64,000 bases of DNA from Shigella phage vb_GEC_SH_GT: sequence record OR887633; one strand, 5' to 3'. The notes under the pieces were generated by a model. It was not told the origin of the DNA, made no database searches, and worked only from the letters and a program-made list of their open reading frames with translations. The position numbers and the translations under genes are program-made. Position 1 is the first letter of the stretch, and each line of letters starts with the position of its first letter. Shown here piece after piece: positions 2,040 through 48,119 of this stretch.

Positions 2040-3359
2040 TCACACATAAAACACATCATAACGACCACGAGTGACACCAACATAAAGAAGCTGCTGAGCT
2101 AGTTCAGCATCTGCATAATGAATACAAGGCGTATAAATGAAAGCACGGTCTACAGACATGCCCTGCGCTTTATGGAATGTTGATGCAGGAAGTGCTTTCA
2201 CTTTACTAAACTGTGATTTAGCATCCCAAAAATCACTCCATGGAGCTTTTCCGCCTTTATTCCAATTTTTGTAAGTTTCTGCAGTTTTACCTAAAAATAG
2301 GTTAAACTTATATAGCTCTTCATCAGATGAAATTATTTTAATCTTTTCACGATAATATTCATCATCGCCGTAAGTTTCTACTGTTAAATCCCAATGACGA
2401 ATTAGATATTCTCCAGAAACACCACGAGCTTTAACAAATGTTGATGTATACTCTGCTTCTATAATACGAACTAATTGTCCGTTATTAAAAATAATTTCTG
2501 ACACAGGCTTTCCATCAATTTTATATGTTTTAATTAATGGTTCCTGCATTACAATAATTTCACCAACGATAAAATCTTTATCAGTTTCAAAAATCTTTTT
2601 ACGAATAATGCTATTTAACTTATCAACAGATTTATTCGTAAATGCCATTACGCGATTTTCAAACAAATCATCTAGTGATTTTACGATTGAAAAATAATTT
2701 ACCATAAAATCGCGTAAAGCGGTATCACCAGTAAATCCACGTACTCCATGTCCGTCAACAACTTTATCATAAATCCACTTACCGTTACGAACATCAGTAG
2801 CTACATCAATAATAGGAGCATTACTGCGTTTAACTTCAGTGAGTTCACACTGATAAAAATCTTTGTGCGTAAAGAATGGACTGATATAAGCAGTGTTTTC
2901 TCCTGGGTCAACAGGTCTAATTTGCTTATTATCGCCTATTCCAATTATAGTACACCATGGCGGGATAGTTGAAAGCAGAATTTTAAATAGCTTTCTATCA
3001 TACATTGACACTTCGTCGCAGATTAATACTCTGCATTTAGCCAAATCTGGTACTTCTTTTTGTTCAAAAAGAACGTTTTCTTCGTATGTTACCGGGTTAA
3101 TTTTAAGAATACTGTGAATAGTACTCGCTTCTTTCCCTGATAGTTTTGAAAGAATCTTTTTAGCTGCATGTGTAGGAGCTGCTAAAATAATTCCAGTTTC
3201 GCCTGTAGATATTAAGGCTTCAATGATGAACTTAGTAAGAGTAGTCTTACCAGTACCAGCAGGTCCATTAATAGTTACATGATGTTTCTTTTCTTTGATA
3301 GCCCTCATAACAATGTTAAAGGCATTTTTCTGGCCTTCGGTCAAATCATCAAATGTCAT
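2040..3359 (-). CDS. dda: Dda DNA helicase (SF1B)
   Basis: 439 aa; Walker A GPAGTGKTT, helicase motifs; length and N-terminus MTFDDLTEGQKNAF as T4 Dda. Confidence 0.95.
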   Translation of the reverse strand: MTFDDLTEGQKNAFNIVMRAIKEKKHHVTINGPAGTGKTTLTKFIIEALISTGETGIILAAPTHAAKKILSKLSGKEASTIHSILKINPVTYEENVLFEQKEVPDLAKCRVLICDEVSMYDRKLFKILLSTIPPWCTIIGIGDNKQIRPVDPGENTAYISPFFTHKDFYQCELTEVKRSNAPIIDVATDVRNGKWIYDKVVDGHGVRGFTGDTALRDFMVNYFSIVKSLDDLFENRVMAFTNKSVDKLNSIIRKKIFETDKDFIVGEIIVMQEPLIKTYKIDGKPVSEIIFNNGQLVRIIEAEYTSTFVKARGVSGEYLIRHWDLTVETYGDDEYYREKIKIISSDEELYKFNLFLGKTAETYKNWNKGGKAPWSDFWDAKSQFSKVKALPASTFHKAQGMSVDRAFIYTPCIHYADAELAQQLLYVGVTRGRYDVFYV

Positions 3360-8233: not shown

Positions 8234-8241
8234 TATTTATA
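8234..8241 (-). promoter_or_regulatory. T4-type late promoter TATAAATA for soc
   Basis: Minus-strand TATAAATA about 30 nt upstream of the soc start codon. Confidence 0.6.
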
Positions 8242-9088
8242 AACCATTTTCAAACCTCTTTATCATATTTATATAGTTTTCATCGGGATAACCTAGACTA
8301 ACTGCTAACTTTCTAAAATTGACATATTTAGGTTTGTTGTTATTAATCCATAATTCTCTAAGCTCTTTTTCATAATTCCATTTAAGTTGATTTCTGCGTG
8401 CAGTTTTGCTTAAAGTTTTTCCTTTAGCTTTTAAAGCTTTTTCGGATGATTGTTTTAATTTTTGAATATTTAAAACTTCTTCTATAGATAAATTATTTTC
8501 CTTTGAATACCTTATGCAAAAATCTTTTACTACGGCTATTAGGCAATTTTTGTGAGTACCTAAAATTTCTGGATTATTTTCTTCAACTAAAATTCCCCAA
8601 TATCTTCTGTAGCGAGGCATATCCCTTGAAATCCAGTCATTATACCAAAAATCAAAGTTGGAATACATGAAAGATTTTCTTTTGCGAAGAGTATCTTGGT
8701 TTATCCATTGCTCACGTTTATCAGCCCATAACTTAATAGTAAAGTCTTTCTCTAAGTCAGAAAGCTTCTTAAATTGCGAGCTATTTACTGAGGTCATTCT
8801 CTGGAATGCATTTAGCAATCCAAATCTTCCAGTTGAACATAAGAGATAGTGAACATATATGTGTTGATATATTGGGAGATATACTCTATTCCAAGGATAT
8901 ATTTTAAAATCACTATACTCAGGAAATGCGCATTTAGGAAGTATATGATGGGCTTCTGTTTTAGATTTAATGTGAGTGTTTAACTTATACTTATCTATAA
9001 TTTTTAAGTACTCATCTAAAAGTTCCCATTGCGGGAACTTTTCTTTAAGAGCAGATTTGAAATTAATATCCATTATCTTGACGTTCAA
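8237..9088 (-). CDS. free-standing HNH homing endonuclease (Mob-like)
   Basis: 283 aa; EAHHILPKC...N...H...H spacing matches the HNH motifs of ORFs 25678..26394 and 47340..48119; sits where T4 has segF. Confidence 0.7.
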   Translation of the reverse strand: MNVKIMDINFKSALKEKFPQWELLDEYLKIIDKYKLNTHIKSKTEAHHILPKCAFPEYSDFKIYPWNRVYLPIYQHIYVHYLLCSTGRFGLLNAFQRMTSVNSSQFKKLSDLEKDFTIKLWADKREQWINQDTLRKRKSFMYSNFDFWYNDWISRDMPRYRRYWGILVEENNPEILGTHKNCLIAVVKDFCIRYSKENNLSIEEVLNIQKLKQSSEKALKAKGKTLSKTARRNQLKWNYEKELRELWINNNKPKYVNFRKLAVSLGYPDENYINMIKRFENGL

Positions 9089-9581
9089 AATTATGTTTGT
9101 TCTTCAGGTAATAAAGTTTAAAGATTTCTTCAGCTGTAAGACCAAGACCCTGGAACATATTCAGAACGAAATGAAGAATATCAATCATTTCAAATTTAAT
9201 TTCTAACTGGTCTTGCGGAGACAAATCAGTAATTAGAGTTTCACGGCGTTCACCATGTTGAGCTTTCCAAGGCTTCCATACAGCAGATGCATCTTTTTCG
9301 CCATTGCTCATACCGCCAAGAGAAGTTAGAAGTTCGCGGAATTCATCATCAATATAATCTTTCTGATTGCGCAGCCAATCAACAACTTCACCTGCGGTAG
9401 CCAAATCATCAGGATGACGGTTATATTCAGGTTTATCTTTAGCTAAACGAACCTGTAGAGATTTCTGCATATCAAGCATAACCTGCAGCGGGTCTTTTTC
9501 ATCACCAAGAATATCCCAGTATTCATTTTGAGCTTTATCAACACCTTCGATCAAATGAGCGCATTCATTAAAATATGCCAT
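9063..9581 (-). CDS. 56: dCTP/dCDP pyrophosphatase gp56
   Basis: Start trimmed to MAYFNECAHLIEG; MazG-like all-alpha NTP pyrophosphatase; position soc-56-dam. Confidence 0.85.
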   Translation of the reverse strand: MAYFNECAHLIEGVDKAQNEYWDILGDEKDPLQVMLDMQKSLQVRLAKDKPEYNRHPDDLATAGEVVDWLRNQKDYIDDEFRELLTSLGGMSNGEKDASAVWKPWKAQHGERRETLITDLSPQDQLEIKFEMIDILHFVLNMFQGLGLTAEEIFKLYYLKNKHNFERQDNGY

Positions 9582-24980: not shown

Positions 24981-25035
24981 GTAATTTCCTTCAATTCAAA
25001 TGAGATTTAATTTTATAACTAATTTAATAAAGCAA

Positions 25036-25425
25036 TTAACGATTAAAATCAGCAGCAATTGTTTCCGCAACAATTTGAGCAGCAACAATTAGACGTTCAT
25101 CTGCATTACCGCAATAATCATCTTCAAGGCGTTCACCGCATGAAGTCATAATAAATTTAGCACCAGCATTTAGAGATTCTGCCGTATGTTTGCGCATCAG
25201 TTCGATCCATTTATCACTCACTTCACGATCGATAGCTTCATAATACGCATGACGAGCAGGTGCAGATTTAATTTTGCTTTGAATAACTTCCATTGCGTTA
25301 TTAGAAAGAGACAAAACCCATGCTCGACGAATTTTATTTTGGTTTTGTGGATTTGAATCAGAACGCACGTGTTTTGGCTGAATATCTTTTACGTCAACAG
25401 TATAATTCACAGTAATTTTAGTCAT
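25036..25425 (-). CDS. rpbA: RNA polymerase binding protein RpbA
   Basis: 129 aa; assigned by size and position downstream of 45. Confidence 0.7.
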
Positions 25426-25434
25426 AATACACCT

Positions 25435-25626
25435 TTAGTCATAGTAATCAGTAACAGTCCAAGCTTCATTTCTGTTGGACATTATTTTCGTATATTCTGC
25501 TTTAAATGCATTCTTAAGCATAGATTCAGTAACTATATGCTCTTCATTAGAAAAATTATTTCTCAGAATATATCGTTTTATTTCAGGAATAGTTAATAGA
25601 TGCTGTCCAGTTGAATATTCTGCCAC
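25435..25626 (-). CDS. hypothetical protein (45.2 position)
   Basis: 63 aa ORF. Confidence 0.5.
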   Translation of the reverse strand: MAEYSTGQHLLTIPEIKRYILRNNFSNEEHIVTESMLKNAFKAEYTKIMSNRNEAWTVTDYYD

Positions 25627-25636
25627 AGTTCCTCCG

Positions 25637-25644
25637 TATAAATA
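25637..25644 (+). promoter_or_regulatory. T4-type late promoter (TATAAATA) on plus strand
   Basis: Exact TATAAATA about 34 nt upstream of the plus-strand HNH ORF start, followed by SD AAGGA. Confidence 0.55.
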
Positions 25645-25677
25645 TATTTATCACTCGCTGTATCAAAAGGATATGTT

Positions 25678-26394
25678 ATGAATTATAAACTAATTTATGA
25701 AAAGTTAATCTCTAATGCTAAATCTCGAAAACTTGATTGCTATACTGAATCTCATCACATTATACCACGCTGTTTAAATGGCAGCGATGATGCTTCAAAC
25801 TTAGTAGATTTAACACCAGAAGAGCACTATGTAGCTCATCAACTTTTAGTAAAAATTTATCCTTCTGAACCAAAATTAGTCTATGCTGCTAACATGATGA
25901 CAGTTTCCACGAAATACGCTAAACGCAACAATAAAACTTTCGGTTGGATTCGTCGTAAACTCTGGGAAATAGAAAAGAATAAAGAATTCTCCCAGGAGAC
26001 ACGAAAGAAAATGTCTAATGCAGTAGCTAATAAAGCAAGACTAACTTGTCCTCATTGCGGTAAATCTGGATTAAGCGGGAATATGAATCGATGGCATTTT
26101 GATAACTGCCCTAATCACCCTAATCCTAAAGTTAGACCACCGATGTCTAAAGAACACAGAAATAATATCTCAAACGGACTTAAAGCAATCGTTCTTGAAG
26201 AAACATCCTGCGAATTCTGCGGAATGATAGGCAAGAAATGCGTTATCGCAGCGCATAGAAATTTCTGCAAGAAAAATCCAAATGGACGCAAGAAAACTGA
26301 AAAGACTGGTACTTGCGTCCATTGTGGTAAAGTTACCACTTTCGGAAATTTATCAAGGTGGCATAATGATAACTGTAAATATAAACCTAGCTAA
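25678..26394 (+). CDS. free-standing HNH homing endonuclease with triple Zn-finger-like repeats (plus strand)
   Basis: 238 aa; HNH core ESHHIIPRC...N...H; three repeats of C-x2-C...RWH-x-DNC; opposite strand to neighbours; inserted between 45.2 and 46. Confidence 0.8.
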   Translation: MNYKLIYEKLISNAKSRKLDCYTESHHIIPRCLNGSDDASNLVDLTPEEHYVAHQLLVKIYPSEPKLVYAANMMTVSTKYAKRNNKTFGWIRRKLWEIEKNKEFSQETRKKMSNAVANKARLTCPHCGKSGLSGNMNRWHFDNCPNHPNPKVRPPMSKEHRNNISNGLKAIVLEETSCEFCGMIGKKCVIAAHRNFCKKNPNGRKKTEKTGTCVHCGKVTTFGNLSRWHNDNCKYKPS

Positions 26395-28075
26395 TCTTAG
26401 CTAAACTAAATCTACCAACTTTTTCCATCTGAATATGCTGACCATATTCTTGTGGGTCATGGTCTTTATGCGAAATTATGAAGAAGTTGGTATCCTTCAA
26501 ACCATCTAAAATTTTAGCTACATTTTTAATACCTTCAGCATCAAATGCGCCGTCATACACTTCATCAAGAAATAAACAACTTATTTTAACACCTGAAACT
26601 TTTTCAGCAATATCACGCCAAGTAAATAAAAGAGCAATATCAATTCGTGCTTTTTCACCTTGACTAAATGAAGCATAACTAAAATCTTCACGACCACGGG
26701 ATTTAATTGTCTCATTAAATTCTTCATCTAATGTAAACACATAATCCGCTTCCATTATTTTAAGATAATGGTTAATCTGCTTATTAAATAATGGAATGTA
26801 CTTTTTAATAATAGCACCTTTAATACCAGAATCTTTGAGCATATCAGTCAAAATTCCTCTGTGGTATTTTTCCATTACTAAATTAGTTTTTGTCTTAACA
26901 ATTTTATCAAGTTCTTCTTGAAGCAGTGCTATTTCATCGGCATGGTCAATAAACTCAGATGATGCTTTTTCTATAGCCGCTTTAACTTTTTTAGCTTTAT
27001 CTACCGTCGTGATTAAGGATTGCTTTTTATTGCGAATATCATTTGCCAATGACTGTTGGGTTTTAATATTATCTCGGTATTCATCAACAAGAACTTTTAA
27101 ATTATCACGATGTGTTGAAAGCTGTTCAAACGAATGCGTGCATTCAGAAACTTTATCTTTAATTTTAGAAACAACTTTATCACCGGAACTTAATTGTGAC
27201 AAACAGGTTGGACATAATCCACCTTCGTGATACATATTAATGACTTTATTATACGAGTCAATTTTTGATTTAATCAAAACTGCTTCTTGACCGATTTTAT
27301 TAAATGCATCAGTCGGATCTTCATCTAAAACAATATTAACTAATCTTTCATTAGCTTCTTCTATTTCCGATTTTAGCGTTCTAGCTTCCTTTGCCAAATC
27401 ATCATACATATTCTGCAGACGAGTAAGATTGTCACCAGATAATTTTTTCTGACGTTCAACATTATCATTATATATTTTAATTTGTTGGATAATACTATCT
27501 TTTTTAACATCAAGCACTTGGTTTTGTGAATTTAATTCACGTATTAGTGCTTTATTAAGCTTATCCATTTCAGCTAATGTTCCTACTTCGAGCAGGTCTT
27601 CGACAAGCTTTCTTCTTGCAGGAGTGGATAGGCCCATGAAAGGGGTATATCCAGCCGTGCCGAGTACGACGATCTGTTTGAAACTGGCGTATGACATTCC
27701 GATAAGCTGTTCAAATTCTGCTTGGAAATCTTTACTGCTGGCAGATTCATTAAGACGTGTACCGTTAACGGTGATTTCGAAAACATTTGGTTTTTGTCCT
27801 CTTTTGATATAGTACTTTTTCTCATCATATTCCATCCACAGTTCAACTAAAAGCTCTTTCTTATTTGTACTGTTTATTAATTGACCTTTCTTTACATCAC
27901 GAAATGGCTTGCCAAAAAGCCCAAATGTGATGGCTTCTAACATAGTAGACTTACCGCCGCCATTTCGCCCAGTAATAAGAGTTTTTTGAACCTTATCTAG
28001 TTGAATGTCAATAGGATTTCCACCTACTGACATTATATTTTGATACCTAACTCGGTTTAGTTTAAAATTCTTCAC
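26387..28075 (-). CDS. 46: recombination nuclease subunit gp46 (Rad50/SbcC-like ATPase)
   Basis: 562 aa; Walker A GRNGGGKST, long coiled coil with CxxC hook, signature and Walker B at C-terminus. Confidence 0.9.
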   Translation of the reverse strand: MKNFKLNRVRYQNIMSVGGNPIDIQLDKVQKTLITGRNGGGKSTMLEAITFGLFGKPFRDVKKGQLINSTNKKELLVELWMEYDEKKYYIKRGQKPNVFEITVNGTRLNESASSKDFQAEFEQLIGMSYASFKQIVVLGTAGYTPFMGLSTPARRKLVEDLLEVGTLAEMDKLNKALIRELNSQNQVLDVKKDSIIQQIKIYNDNVERQKKLSGDNLTRLQNMYDDLAKEARTLKSEIEEANERLVNIVLDEDPTDAFNKIGQEAVLIKSKIDSYNKVINMYHEGGLCPTCLSQLSSGDKVVSKIKDKVSECTHSFEQLSTHRDNLKVLVDEYRDNIKTQQSLANDIRNKKQSLITTVDKAKKVKAAIEKASSEFIDHADEIALLQEELDKIVKTKTNLVMEKYHRGILTDMLKDSGIKGAIIKKYIPLFNKQINHYLKIMEADYVFTLDEEFNETIKSRGREDFSYASFSQGEKARIDIALLFTWRDIAEKVSGVKISCLFLDEVYDGAFDAEGIKNVAKILDGLKDTNFFIISHKDHDPQEYGQHIQMEKVGRFSLAKIS

Positions 28076-28335
28076 AAAAGATTCCTTTTAATGTATCTTT
28101 TAGACCATTCTATCATATCATCATAATCTAAAAAGTATTCATCAAATTCAGCCATGCAAACAACGCCTTGTGCTGCTTTTGATGTGATATAAATTATTCC
28201 AACATATCTAGAATCTTCTTCGGTATAATCAATATTTGCTATGAATTCATCGTTAATGTCAAATGTCGAAAACTTCACAATATGCATCCTTAATACAAGA
28301 TACAGCCATATCTTGTAATGATTTAGGTGTGTCAT
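28072..28335 (-). CDS. hypothetical protein (46.1 position)
   Basis: 87 aa ORF. Confidence 0.45.
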   Translation of the reverse strand: MTHLNHYKIWLYLVLRMHIVKFSTFDINDEFIANIDYTEEDSRYVGIIYITSKAAQGVVCMAEFDEYFLDYDDMIEWSKRYIKRNLL

Positions 28336-28522
28336 TATCTAAAATGTTGAAGTTAAAAGATACAGCCCAGTCAGTGCAGACCGTAACCTTTTTAATGCAA
28401 TTATCTTCAACCTCTAACGGTTCAAACCAATATTCAATAATTTCTTTATGCCCAATATCATCTTTTACTTCGCATTCAAAATGCTGACTCATCATAACAT
28501 TTTTAAATTCATCAAAAGTCAT
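28259..28522 (-). CDS. hypothetical protein (46.2 position)
   Basis: 87 aa ORF overlapping neighbours. Confidence 0.45.
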   Translation of the reverse strand: MTFDEFKNVMMSQHFECEVKDDIGHKEIIEYWFEPLEVEDNCIKKVTVCTDWAVSFNFNILDNDTPKSLQDMAVSCIKDAYCEVFDI

Positions 28523-29538
28523 TGTGTTGCCTCTACATATAACTGATTTGCATATTGAATAAGTGCTTCACGATCAGAATCAGTGATGTCTGGAATTGCA
28601 TTAATGTATTCTTCCATCAACGTCTGAAGAGATTGAACTTCAACTTCTTCACTATCATCTGACTCGACAGAGTTATCAATCTTTGACACAACTCGTAATG
28701 AATGCACAACTTTTTCTAGTTCAGATTCGAACTTCGTCAGATTTTTGTCTACTTCAGTTACTATAACACGCACTGACAGATTTGTAAAATCTTTATAGTC
28801 AATTTTTCCCTTAAATGGATATTGAATTCGACGATGCCAGGTAGTGTTGTTTGGAATAAATTCCATTCGTTCTGTTTCTGTATCAAACATCCAGAACCCG
28901 CGAGGGTCATTCTCGTCACCTGCAGTTAATGTCCATGGTGTCCCAATATATTTGACATTAGCAGCCTCAGAGATAGTATGGAAGTGACCAGACCACACTT
29001 CTTTGTAAGTCTTAAGGAAATCAGGTTCAAGACCGTGAGATTTCATTCCTTTATAAAAATAAAATCCATTCAGTTCCCAGTGACCAACACAAAAAGAAGC
29101 AGATGAAGTTTTGATGTGTTCAAGAATTTCACCGGTATTTTCTTCGCACATCCAAGGAATTAAATCAATCAAACATCCGTCAAAATCTACTGTAGTAGGC
29201 TTATCATATACTTTAACATTAGGATATTTAGCCAAAAGCTCAGTAGAAGCATTTGGAGTTAAAGTATTTTTAAAGTGCATATCATGGTTTCCTACAACAG
29301 TATGTAGGGTAATACCAGCATCATCAAGCATTTGAACTATTTCACGGGCGAACTCCATAGTTTTATGCGTGATTGCTTTTCGCACATCAAAAATATCACC
29401 GTATTGAATCCATGTAGTAATTCTGTTTTTCTTAGAATATTCTATCGCTTGCTTAATTCCATCCAGCTGAATAGATTGAACCCACTCATCATCAGCTTTA
29501 ACGCCTAAATGCCAATCACCTAAATTTAAAATTTTCAT
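28519..29538 (-). CDS. 47: recombination nuclease subunit gp47 (Mre11/SbcD-like)
   Basis: 339 aa; calcineurin-like phosphoesterase motifs DWHLG, GDIFD, GNHD. Confidence 0.9.
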   Translation of the reverse strand: MKILNLGDWHLGVKADDEWVQSIQLDGIKQAIEYSKKNRITTWIQYGDIFDVRKAITHKTMEFAREIVQMLDDAGITLHTVVGNHDMHFKNTLTPNASTELLAKYPNVKVYDKPTTVDFDGCLIDLIPWMCEENTGEILEHIKTSSASFCVGHWELNGFYFYKGMKSHGLEPDFLKTYKEVWSGHFHTISEAANVKYIGTPWTLTAGDENDPRGFWMFDTETERMEFIPNNTTWHRRIQYPFKGKIDYKDFTNLSVRVIVTEVDKNLTKFESELEKVVHSLRVVSKIDNSVESDDSEEVEVQSLQTLMEEYINAIPDITDSDREALIQYANQLYVEATQ

Positions 29539-29676
29539 ATATCAAGAACCGTCATTGAAATGCAAAATAAAATTATTGAAATAAATCCATCTGGAGTACT
29601 AAAGAACCCAATCCAACACGCTCTGGTGAACAAATAAAACGCTAGAAAAAGTATCACATATCCAAGAAATATCATT
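29536..29676 (-). CDS. small hydrophobic peptide (46 aa, 47.1 position)
   Basis: Hand-translated MIFLGYVILFLAFYLFTRACWIGFF...; stop overlaps gene 47 start. Confidence 0.3.
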
Positions 29677-46345: not shown

Positions 46346-47392
46346 TCATTTATAATAACTTCGGTGGTTTTCAAGATAGACCTTCTCAAGGAAGTCATCC
46401 CAGAAACTCATGTCTACTTTTTGCTGCATACCGTTCTTAGAAGCTTCAGTAGATGCTGCTTCTACTTGATCGACCACATCTTCCAAAAACTCTTGAACCG
46501 TTTTAAATGGATGTTTACCCAACTTCACGTCGAGAATAAATGGAGCATCTTTGAGTGGATAAACCAAGTCACCAGTTTTGTAAATTTCCAATAGTTGAAG
46601 TCCACCACGACAAGCATGGCTCAAAGCTTTCCAGTCAATACCTTCGTTGGCTTCGGCCTTACGAGCACGTTCACCGTATTCAGCATCTAATTTGTTCAGT
46701 GACTGCTTAAGTTCAATAAGAGAAAGCGTTGTCTGATATTTACGACCCAACACAGTGTAGAACGTTTGTGGGCCTGTTTTCTCATGATTATGGAACACCC
46801 ATTCACAGAATTCGTTTTCTGGAAGACGATGCTTAATATCTTCAACTTTAGTACGACGCTGCTTAATAGAACCATCTTCTTGGTAATCAATCCATTGCTC
46901 AGGGATTTGATTAACTACTTTCAATACATCACGTAATGCAGCCAAACGAGAACCCTTGACGCCATATTTAGAAGCTTGCTTACGGACATATCCTAAATAG
47001 GATTTCATGTTAGTCGTATAAAAACGAGAACGGTTGTCTTGAATAAACTTCCACACATCAGGCAAATCAGATTTAACCACTAGTTCAGGTGGAGTGTGAA
47101 GCATATCCAATGCTACGGTTTCACCATCTGCTGCTAATTTAAAGAAATATTTAAGACTGTATAGTTCATGGTCAATATCATCTTTAGTGTTTTTAGATGA
47201 TGTGTTGTTAGTGTTTTTGCTCATATGCTCTTTGACATTTCCGATAAGAATATCGCGAGCAGGAGGAACAAAGATTTCTTTAAAATCTACATCAGATTCT
47301 GGGGTAGAAGTTCCATAAAGATGACTACCAAAATAAGACTTAACTACAGTTTTCATTATTAGACCTTTCATAATCTTCATTAAATTGTACAA
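46346..47392 (-). CDS. Pol-beta superfamily nucleotidyltransferase-like protein
   Basis: 348 aa; N-terminal GS-x10-DVD motif (GSHLYGTSTPESDVDF); start may be an internal Met. Confidence 0.6.
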   Translation of the reverse strand: MYNLMKIMKGLIMKTVVKSYFGSHLYGTSTPESDVDFKEIFVPPARDILIGNVKEHMSKNTNNTSSKNTKDDIDHELYSLKYFFKLAADGETVALDMLHTPPELVVKSDLPDVWKFIQDNRSRFYTTNMKSYLGYVRKQASKYGVKGSRLAALRDVLKVVNQIPEQWIDYQEDGSIKQRRTKVEDIKHRLPENEFCEWVFHNHEKTGPQTFYTVLGRKYQTTLSLIELKQSLNKLDAEYGERARKAEANEGIDWKALSHACRGGLQLLEIYKTGDLVYPLKDAPFILDVKLGKHPFKTVQEFLEDVVDQVEAASTEASKNGMQQKVDMSFWDDFLEKVYLENHRSYYK

Positions 47393-48119
47393 TCAATCGA
47401 TGATAATTAGATTTTGGATATCCTAATTTACTTATATAAGTTCCGAATGACCCACGTTTAGGTCTATTTAATTTAATCCATAACTTATAAAGTAAGTCAT
47501 AGTCTTGCCAATGTTTACCAGTTCTTTGTCTAATTTTAGATGAATTTGATTGTTTCTTTTTAGTTTCAAAATTATTCAAAGATTTTTTGACTGCAGCAGA
47601 GTGTTTTTCTTTAACTCCCGGCCGTTTAAAAGCAGCTTTCACCCCTTTAGATATTTTTTCTTTAACTTCCGGTTTGTTTTGTGCTTCTAACTGGGATTCT
47701 GAAATTTTAGCCCTTATTTCAGGAAGACTTAATGTTATCGAACGTTTTTCTCTGTATTCATTAGACTTCCACATTTCTTTCATTGTATTAGAATGTATTT
47801 TTGAAAATTTTTCTCTAACTAACTGATATCCTCTTGAAGTTAATTTGAGATTTCTTCCTAAAGAATCTTCTCCAAAATTATAAAATGACCACCATGCATA
47901 AATTAATCCAGGCGAATTATAATGAATTTTAGCTAAAAGCCAATGGGCTATAAAATGCTCTCTAGCTGTTAATAAAACTAGATTATCAGAATCATCATTA
48001 CCACCAATACAAGATGGAATAATATGATGCTTTTCCGTATAAAAATTTAATTTAGATTTATCTAATTTTCTGAGTTTTCCTTTCTTAATTAAATTATTAT
48101 ATACTTTAGTATAATTCAT
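47340..48119 (-). CDS. free-standing HNH homing endonuclease (MobD-like)
   Basis: 259 aa; EKHHIIPSC...NLVLLTAREHFIAH; N-terminus paralogous to ORF 25678..26394. Confidence 0.75.
   Translation of the reverse strand: MNYTKVYNNLIKKGKLRKLDKSKLNFYTEKHHIIPSCIGGNDDSDNLVLLTAREHFIAHWLLAKIHYNSPGLIYAWWSFYNFGEDSLGRNLKLTSRGYQLVREKFSKIHSNTMKEMWKSNEYREKRSITLSLPEIRAKISESQLEAQNKPEVKEKISKGVKAAFKRPGVKEKHSAAVKKSLNNFETKKKQSNSSKIRQRTGKHWQDYDLLYKLWIKLNRPKRGSFGTYISKLGYPKSNYHRLIVQFNEDYERSNNENCS

Follow-up and report, generated by a model that had tools for sequence, protein, structure and literature searches.

What is a plus-strand gene doing between genes 45.2 and 46 of a T4-like phage, where its neighbours lie on the other strand, and is it a mobile element? 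The case comes from Shigella phage vb_GEC_SH_GT (record OR887633), of which a stretch of 64,000 nt, here called the window, was analysed. The window, a segment of a T4-like (Tequatrovirus) genome, is collinear with a part of T4 in which genes 43 to 47 lie, and the nearest database genome over positions 25000-27000 is phage vB-Eco-KMB39, with 98.8% identity. Among the minus-strand genes 44, 45, rpbA, 45.2, 46, 46.1/46.2 and 47 there is an open reading frame on the plus strand (25678..26394) that encodes 238 amino acids plus a stop. Its ATG start is backed by M1, Y3 and Y7, which are invariant in 37 homologues, and 6 nt before the ATG the sequence reads AAGGA, which is Shine-Dalgarno-like (25667..25671, plus strand). 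At the other end the gene converges on gene 46, and the two stop codons overlap within 8 nt (26387..26394). A first-pass annotation had described it as one of very few plus-strand genes, and this is correct: the window has three plus-strand ORFs of at least 110 amino acids, of which the other two are antisense and lie inside or over minus-strand genes, so that this one is the sole credible gene. We consider it probable, at roughly 80%, that the gene encodes an active, free-standing homing endonuclease of the Mob class, similar to MobE and expressed late. The original observation has been borne out, and its reading as a mobile Mob-type insertion is essentially correct.

The gene itself is not new to the databases. 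Phage RB32 already has it as RB32ORF054w with the annotation 'homing endonuclease, similar to mobB', dozens of genomes label it a homing or HNH endonuclease, and the label is found in RefSeq. A review from 2010 tallied RB32 with two mob-like HNH genes (PMC2993671, Table 5). In the literature that was searched, no experimental work on cleavage or homing by this endonuclease was found, and what is published on the carrier T4_ev240 added nothing.

The nuclease assignment comes from the N-terminal 75 amino acids (25678..25902, plus strand), which form a Mob-type HNH (His-Me finger) domain with the motif H26/H27, N41, H50, H54. In the same 37 homologues, which have 36-65% identity, E24, H26, H27, N41, H50 and H54 are all invariant. 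The profile of the family matches the HNH region of EcoKMcrA (E 6.9e-4), followed by IscB (E 0.013) and Cas8-HNH (E 0.028), and the protein matches PHROG 655, 'homing endonuclease', with an E-value of 8.6e-69. The AlphaFold2 (AF2) model has strands at residues 24-27 and 42-45, then a helix at 47-60. The N-terminus therefore has the core of an HNH or His-Me finger nuclease, with its His...Asn...His residues in a beta-beta-alpha-metal arrangement. The Pfam HNH family alone gives E 0.007 and 16.9 bits, below its cut-off of 21.4 bits, a direct sequence search of the PDB returned just one weak HNH match, to a group II intron maturase (E 0.31), and no sequence match to I-TevIII or I-HmuI was obtained. 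The HNH core and the N-terminal paralogy to a MobD-like ORF elsewhere in the window, both pointed out in the first-pass annotation, are upheld. That ORF (47340..48119, minus strand) is 53% identical over 75 amino acids (E 8e-24), and the same N-terminal HNH domain is found in T4 MobB and MobD. Beyond it the likeness ends, as the C-terminal halves of the two window proteins are unrelated and the paralogue has no CCHC finger. This is the known pattern of Mob proteins, which share the HNH domain and have C-terminal halves specific to each protein (PMC2790892). The gene thus carries the conserved Mob-type HNH domain of the Mob-class HNH homing endonucleases.

The C-terminal half consists of two NUMOD3-like helices that alternate with three C-x2-C-x11/12-H-x3-C units, all encoded on the plus strand. 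The first helix (SQETRKKMSNAVAN, amino acids 104-117; 25987..26028) is modelled as a helix over residues 106-117. It is followed by predicted zinc finger 1 (C124-x2-C127-x12-H140-x3-C144; 26038..26109), which has the signature GNMNRWHFDNC and a beta-beta-alpha unit at 121-140 in the AF2 model. The second helix (MSKEHRNNISNGLKA, amino acids 156-170; 26143..26187), modelled over 158-170, aligns with NUMOD3 repeats of homologues and leads to predicted finger 2 (C178-x2-C181-x11-H193-x3-C197; 26200..26268), which is degenerate and modelled as beta-beta-alpha at 175-199. Predicted finger 3 (C213-x2-C216-x12-H229-x3-C233; 26305..26376) is the terminal finger and is found family-wide. It had been claimed that three repeats of the form C-x2-C...N-x2-RWH-x-DNC are present. 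All three C-x2-C repeats are indeed there, but the N-x2-RWH-x-DNC part is restricted to fingers 1 and 3, while finger 2 lacks RWHxDNC and reads ...AAHRNFC.

A structure prediction of the repeats, proposed at the same time, was run and gives three beta-beta-alpha units, each a beta-hairpin plus a helix, with a pLDDT of 89.5 for the whole protein and 92.1 for residues 118-238. As modelled, the units have the spacing and the fold of C2HC beta-beta-alpha fingers. Foldseek searches with the full model and with the finger array returned top matches that are nearly all zinc-finger arrays (TRAF6, CTCF, ZFAT, Cep104); the best E-value was 7e-3, so that no match of either query reached E 1e-3. No Pfam finger family reaches its cut-off for this protein. 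Pfam NUMOD3 (PF07460) scores 12.2 bits (E 0.19) against a cut-off of 20.4 bits, yet many homologues have a precomputed PF07460 assignment, one of them (P0035) is above the cut-off, and their repeats align at the same positions. In 21 homologues with three fingers, 12 of 12 predicted zinc-ligand positions are invariant, and finger 3 is invariant in 37 of 37 aligned homologues. Finger number varies. The 120 best homologues include 86 proteins with a single finger, 7 with two fingers and 25 with three, and 117 of the 120 have a CCHC motif within the last 45 amino acids. The C-terminus of MobE is the same finger, CPHCGK..GN..RWH.D.C. A C-terminal zinc finger has already been recorded as a feature of Mob-class enzymes (PMC10448857), and the predicted C-terminal zinc-finger region places the window protein among them. 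Since MobE ends in the same finger and 117 of the 120 best homologues have a terminal CCHC motif, such fingers are nothing new among Mob enzymes.

How would such a gene be expressed, when its neighbours are read in the other direction? The late promoter box noted upstream in the first pass stands up well. It is an exact T4-type late promoter box, TATAAATA, at 25637..25644 on the plus strand, 34 nt before the ATG. In the window the octamer shows no enrichment, with 10.9 copies expected on the two strands together and 7 present, this copy is the sole one on the plus strand in 64 kb, and simple arithmetic from the window counts gives about 0.005 copies expected by chance within 60 nt upstream of the gene on the right strand. 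The box is invariant in 9 carriers. It is also found exactly upstream of the orthologues in Mosigvirus and in Klebsiella phage Roth67, despite diverged surrounding sequence, and these orthologues have just 58-64% protein identity; in Slopekvirus phT4A it is degenerate (CTTAAATA). The box is thus well supported as the predicted late promoter of the endonuclease gene.

A hairpin that sequesters the ribosome binding site, as in I-TevI or Aeh1 mobE, is not predicted here (25650-25720 folds with -7 kcal/mol, z = -0.29), and the gene needs none, because early plus-strand transcription does not enter it. On the plus strand no intrinsic terminator was found downstream of the gene, in 25300-29600, and because of this, late endonuclease transcripts probably run antisense into gene 46. 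The missing plus-strand terminator and the antisense orientation were both counted against the reading as an active homing endonuclease, as were the sub-threshold Pfam HNH and NUMOD3 scores and the non-significant structural matches to zinc-finger arrays. A search for known RNA families gave just a sub-threshold match to RAGATH-8 (21.5 bits against a cut-off of 86.7), which is taken as chance.

This run-through bears on one alternative, in which the protein works chiefly as a regulator that binds DNA with its zinc fingers, and not as a nuclease; late or antisense transcription across genes 46 and 45.2 could be what it controls. Three predicted fingers and NUMOD3-like helices together would make an extended DNA-binding array, a late transcript would run into gene 46 with no terminator to stop it, and I-TevI is known to act as an autorepressor as well (PMC2988022). 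A candidate operator of the I-TevI type was tried and rejected: the best ungapped match between the promoter and 5'UTR (25627-25677) and the empty junction of T4 and T2 is 15 of 20 positions, which is equalled in 34 of 200 shuffles and not significant. A regulator would also not account for the strict conservation of the HNH catalytic residues, and it leaves the sporadic, cassette-like distribution described below unexplained. We regard it as highly improbable.

The first-pass annotation had expected no ORF at this junction in T4 and proposed to compare T4 and its relatives. The comparison was run, and the expectation was right, as T4 has a spacer of just 55 bp between 45.2 and 46. The junction is likewise empty in T2, RB3, BP32, PYps55T, G157lw and Sf24. 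Altogether 654-655 phage records match the region; the gene is present in 59, and about 480 more are at the Tequatrovirus level and match with the flanks only. This makes 59 of about 540 Tequatrovirus records (about one in nine), with the gene absent from about 89%. The copies at this junction have 97-99% nucleotide identity to the window gene, the window allele being nearest to those of phages G28 and KMB39, and a protein cluster (P0001) is 99% identical to the endonuclease. Set beside RB32ORF054w and the copies in the approximately 59 Tequatrovirus genomes, the window gene shows no substantial difference; gene and junction are the same.

Homologues outside the genus occupy the same place. 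A Mosigvirus homologue at the same junction is 58% identical and has 14 carriers among about 170 Mosigvirus-level records, and those of Slopekvirus phT4A and Klebsiella phage Roth67 are 42% and 64% identical. All are likewise convergent to gene 46 with overlapping stops. The Roth67 gene is split into two ORFs and looks like a decaying copy. Among 80 IMG/VR loci with gp46 the gene was found in none, and one locus alone (L081) gave a short HNH-like match. Being free-standing and sporadically distributed, the gene behaves as Mob-class genes do.

Sequence comparison with empty genomes delimits, between genes 45.2 and 46, a cassette about 985 bp long. On the left, identity to T4 is perfect up to 25620 and stops there, as does that to the other non-carriers. 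The following six positions (25621..25626, minus strand) are a replaced start of gene 45.2, GTG GCA, so that the protein begins MAEYS where that of T4 begins MEYS. Mosigvirus carriers have the same additional Ala codon in 45.2, and the left edge is therefore common across genera. Besides the 45.2 start codon, the cassette has replaced the 55-bp spacer and the final codons of gene 46, which in carriers ends in GRFSLAKIS or GRFSVATIN instead of GRFTV.

The effect on gene 46 extends further. The diverged 3' end of the gene (26395..26605, minus strand) covers the Walker B, D-loop and H-loop regions and the new tail ...GRFSLAKIS. In an alignment of about 6.9 kb with 9 carriers and 7 non-carriers, there are 21 fixed differences outside the insert, all of them at 26401-26578, and none in the left flank or beyond 26606. 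Carriers and non-carriers are 73-80% identical in 26400-26599 and 96-99% identical elsewhere. When the tract of about 205 bp was searched for, exactly 59 records of the whole phage collection had it at 95% identity or more and none fell between 90% and 95%; the nearest non-carrier records sampled have about 82% identity at most. The tract and the endonuclease gene are in complete linkage (59 of 59). Outside the 59 carriers, identity to the tract stays within about 82% in every locus and record, so that no donor was found among those searched. This linkage could reflect poor recombination within DNA of 73-80% identity rather than immunity.

Outside the tract the picture is the opposite, as carriers and non-carriers are interleaved with no clade structure. 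The nearest neighbour of the window on both flanks is BP32, which has no endonuclease gene, and the carrier REP2 differs by 0.3% on the right flank from Sf24, which has none either. The cassette must therefore have moved among backgrounds. Repeated loss is an unlikely explanation, because empty genomes keep neither the linked tract nor the edges of the cassette. The earlier suggestion of a mobile insertion is accordingly backed by the absence of the gene from most of the genus, by carriers that are not a clade, and by the foreign gene 46 tract that is carried along.

The protein could be catalytically dead or non-mobile, and the cassette would then spread only through homologous recombination of the ordinary kind or through trans-homing by a neighbouring endonuclease, as MobE does for I-TevIII. 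That a second endonuclease gene can be close by is seen in RB68 and T2, which have a second mob-like gene at the opposite end of gene 46, and the split copy in Roth67 was counted in favour as well. The window and most carriers have no second mob-like gene near gene 46, however, and the catalytic and zinc-ligand residues are invariant in homologues with only 36-65% identity. In addition, the ORF is intact in 9 of 9 alleles, where the polymorphic codons comprise 30 synonymous and 7 non-synonymous changes (the latter conservative) and no stops. From this ratio and the lack of stops it follows that the endonuclease protein is under purifying selection. A dead or non-mobile protein is thus quite unlikely.

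Purifying selection would also be expected if the nuclease were kept mainly as a weapon for competition or exclusion, or had been domesticated, with its own spread being a by-product. Late expression from its own predicted promoter is compatible with this, defensive derivatives of homing endonucleases do exist, such as odn in ICP1 (PMC10448857) and amplification driven by SegB (PMC13096335), and the PADLOC 'HEase' model matches the finger region with E 1.3e-8. The footprint, on the other hand, belongs to a site-specific cassette confined to a single junction, with orthologues at the same junction in several genera and a co-inherited flank. Homing predicts such a footprint and a general weapon does not require it, which makes the weapon unlikely as the main role. 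Exclusion and homing can coexist. What sets all three alternatives behind an active homing endonuclease is that the catalytic residues are conserved, that the distribution is that of a cassette at one junction, and that no operator-like similarity is seen.

The homing reading can be spelled out as a sequence of events, modelled on MobE and other free-standing endonucleases of T-even phages (PMC2790892, PMC2988022). Late in infection the TATAAATA promoter, which would depend on gp55, gp33 and gp45, would drive a plus-strand transcript. The protein would bind an extended DNA site by means of the two NUMOD3-like helices and the three predicted C2HC beta-beta-alpha fingers. In a co-infecting phage without the gene, the N-terminal HNH domain would nick or cut the DNA either at the 45.2/46 junction or in the 3' end of gene 46. 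Recombination-dependent repair would then copy the cassette into the cut genome together with the adjoining 3' tract of gene 46. The carrier genome would be immune, as its spacer is replaced and the neighbouring part of gene 46 has diverged.

Where exactly the target would lie depends on which genus is considered. The tract in Tequatrovirus suggests the last approximately 200 bp of gene 46. In Mosigvirus, gene 46 of carriers does not differ from that of the empty phages WFK and JK45 until about 20 bp from the junction. This speaks for a site with the replaced spacer in it, and with such a site the insertion itself would give immunity. Pinning the target by fixed differences was tried and rejected: in Tequatrovirus they fall at 26401-26578, yet carriers and empty genomes of Mosigvirus are identical there.

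Variation at this end of gene 46 is not limited to the difference between carriers and non-carriers. A patch of about 140 bp at the 3' end has three alleles that are 64-82% identical within genomes that are otherwise 96-99% identical, and the patch is variable in Mosigvirus too. A bolder idea connects this to the protein. The three predicted C2HC fingers, interleaved with NUMOD3-like helices, may be the main modular readers of DNA sequence, making the enzyme a natural 'zinc-finger nuclease' in which finger number (1, 2 or 3 in different family members) would set the length of the target and drive retargeting. The hypervariable patch may have been left behind by repeated rounds of invasion and escape at this junction. 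This is a tentative proposal, conceivable as a whole but more doubtful than probable.

Among known systems the closest is MobE, the free-standing HNH homing endonuclease of T4 between nrdA and nrdB (PMC2790892). Both proteins have an N-terminal Mob HNH domain, NUMOD3-like repeats and the same terminal finger, and full-length identity to MobE of T6 and RB55 is 35-36%. Both genes are free-standing between conserved genes and sporadic, and in both cases the sequence of the neighbouring gene is polymorphic between carriers and non-carriers. The window endonuclease differs in having three predicted fingers instead of one, fewer NUMOD3 repeats and a different location at the 45.2/46 junction. It is also antisense with its own predicted late promoter, whereas mobE has no promoter of its own, lies in the same orientation as its neighbours and is limited by a terminator inside it. 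For MobE, nicking of T2 nrdB has been mapped in vivo, whereas cleavage by the window endonuclease is a prediction. Orientation against the neighbours is shared with T4 segD, the sole T4 homing endonuclease gene of this kind, which has no identifiable promoter and whose expression is believed to be minimal (PMC2988022). The enzyme that segD encodes is of the GIY-YIG type, unlike the HNH protein in the window with its conserved late promoter box.

The joining of an HNH catalytic module to separate DNA-binding modules is seen in I-TevIII (phage RB3) and I-HmuI as well, both of which, unlike the window gene, are intron-encoded. Robbins et al. are said to have described in 2007 that I-TevIII also uses zinc fingers. 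In the classification of His-Me finger nucleases, I-HmuI belongs to HNH_3 in group 2, and group 1 comprises the Mob proteins along with McrA and Cas9 (PMC5714182). Overall, the gene is an ordinary member of the well-known Mob class.

For genome annotation, the case is routine. Its modest value as a Mob enzyme lies in the clean and conserved antisense-oriented predicted late promoter and in the unusual predicted three-finger array. Filled and empty natural alleles in two genera make it ideal for homing crosses. Mapping of the target would give a second characterised Mob enzyme after MobE. The neighbouring gene 46 encodes a Rad50-like subunit of a recombination nuclease, and its 3' end is strikingly mosaic, so that target mapping would also test whether homing endonucleases create allele mosaicism in an essential recombination gene.

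A smaller point concerns the promoter that the cassette has removed. The T4 spacer has a middle promoter with a perfect MotA box (TATGCTTTAA-N12-TATAAT), which carriers have lost. Inside the endonuclease ORF, in antisense orientation, there is a candidate MotA-type middle promoter, ATTGCTTTAA-N12-TATTAT (26162..26189, minus strand), found as a match to a loose pattern that has 45 matches in the window. The candidate is kept in RB32 and RB68 and, speculatively, may replace the deleted T4 promoter.

In T4, the spacer between genes 46 and 45.2 holds a perfect MotA-type middle promoter (positions 9263-9290 of the T4 locus, L001), and this promoter is removed by the cassette, the insert of about 985 bp that bears the endonuclease gene. 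A candidate middle promoter is found on the minus strand at window 26162-26189, antisense within the endonuclease ORF, and it is possible that it substitutes for the deleted one. In Mosigvirus, a MotA-type middle promoter is kept in the cassette spacer (around 2422-2448 in locus L005).

The edges of the cassette reach into the neighbouring genes. At window 25621-25626, the 45.2 gene of carriers has a GTG start and one extra codon (MAEYS vs MEYS); in Mosigvirus carriers this additional Ala codon is also present, with ATG as the start. A second variant of the right junction (corresponding to window 26377-26460) is present in ESH35, REP2 and RB68. Here the endonuclease ends in ...CKHKH and gp46 in ...GRFSVATIN, and there are several additional differences, extending as far as ~26456.

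The 3' end of gene 46 is itself variable. At window 26465-26605, in a patch coding for the Walker B motif and the D-loop, strongly diverged alleles are also present in phages that lack the endonuclease. Comparing loci L090-L092 (L090 being T2) with L001 (T4), L088, L089 and L093, the T2-type and T4-type alleles share just 64% identity across 26500-26599, vs 96-99% in the flanking 7 kb. The same patch varies within Mosigvirus (locus L102 vs L100 and L103).

Within the 5'UTR of the endonuclease gene, downstream of TATAAATA, there is a (G/T)TTTATCA...GCTGTATCA element (window 25645-25666), which is kept in the orthologues of Klebsiella phage Roth67 (L004) and Mosigvirus (L005), while the spacers have elsewhere diverged. 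The Roth67 orthologue lies at the same junction (2501-3235 in its locus), where the annotation splits it into two ORFs (2501-2770 and 2834-3235), a hint that this copy is frameshifted and degenerating.

In T2 (L090, 5178-6030) and in RB68 (L097, 5493-6346), a further mob-like endonuclease gene or its remnant lies between genes 46 and 46.1, so that two endonuclease genes can bracket gene 46. At the matching position of the window (~28075) there is no endonuclease gene. Elsewhere in the window, a minus-strand ORF of 283 aa at 8237-9088 has weak endonuclease similarity: an NCBIfam search gave no match for it, and in tblastn it matches the endonuclease weakly across the HNH-containing stretch (E 0.001). 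It may be a further homing endonuclease gene.
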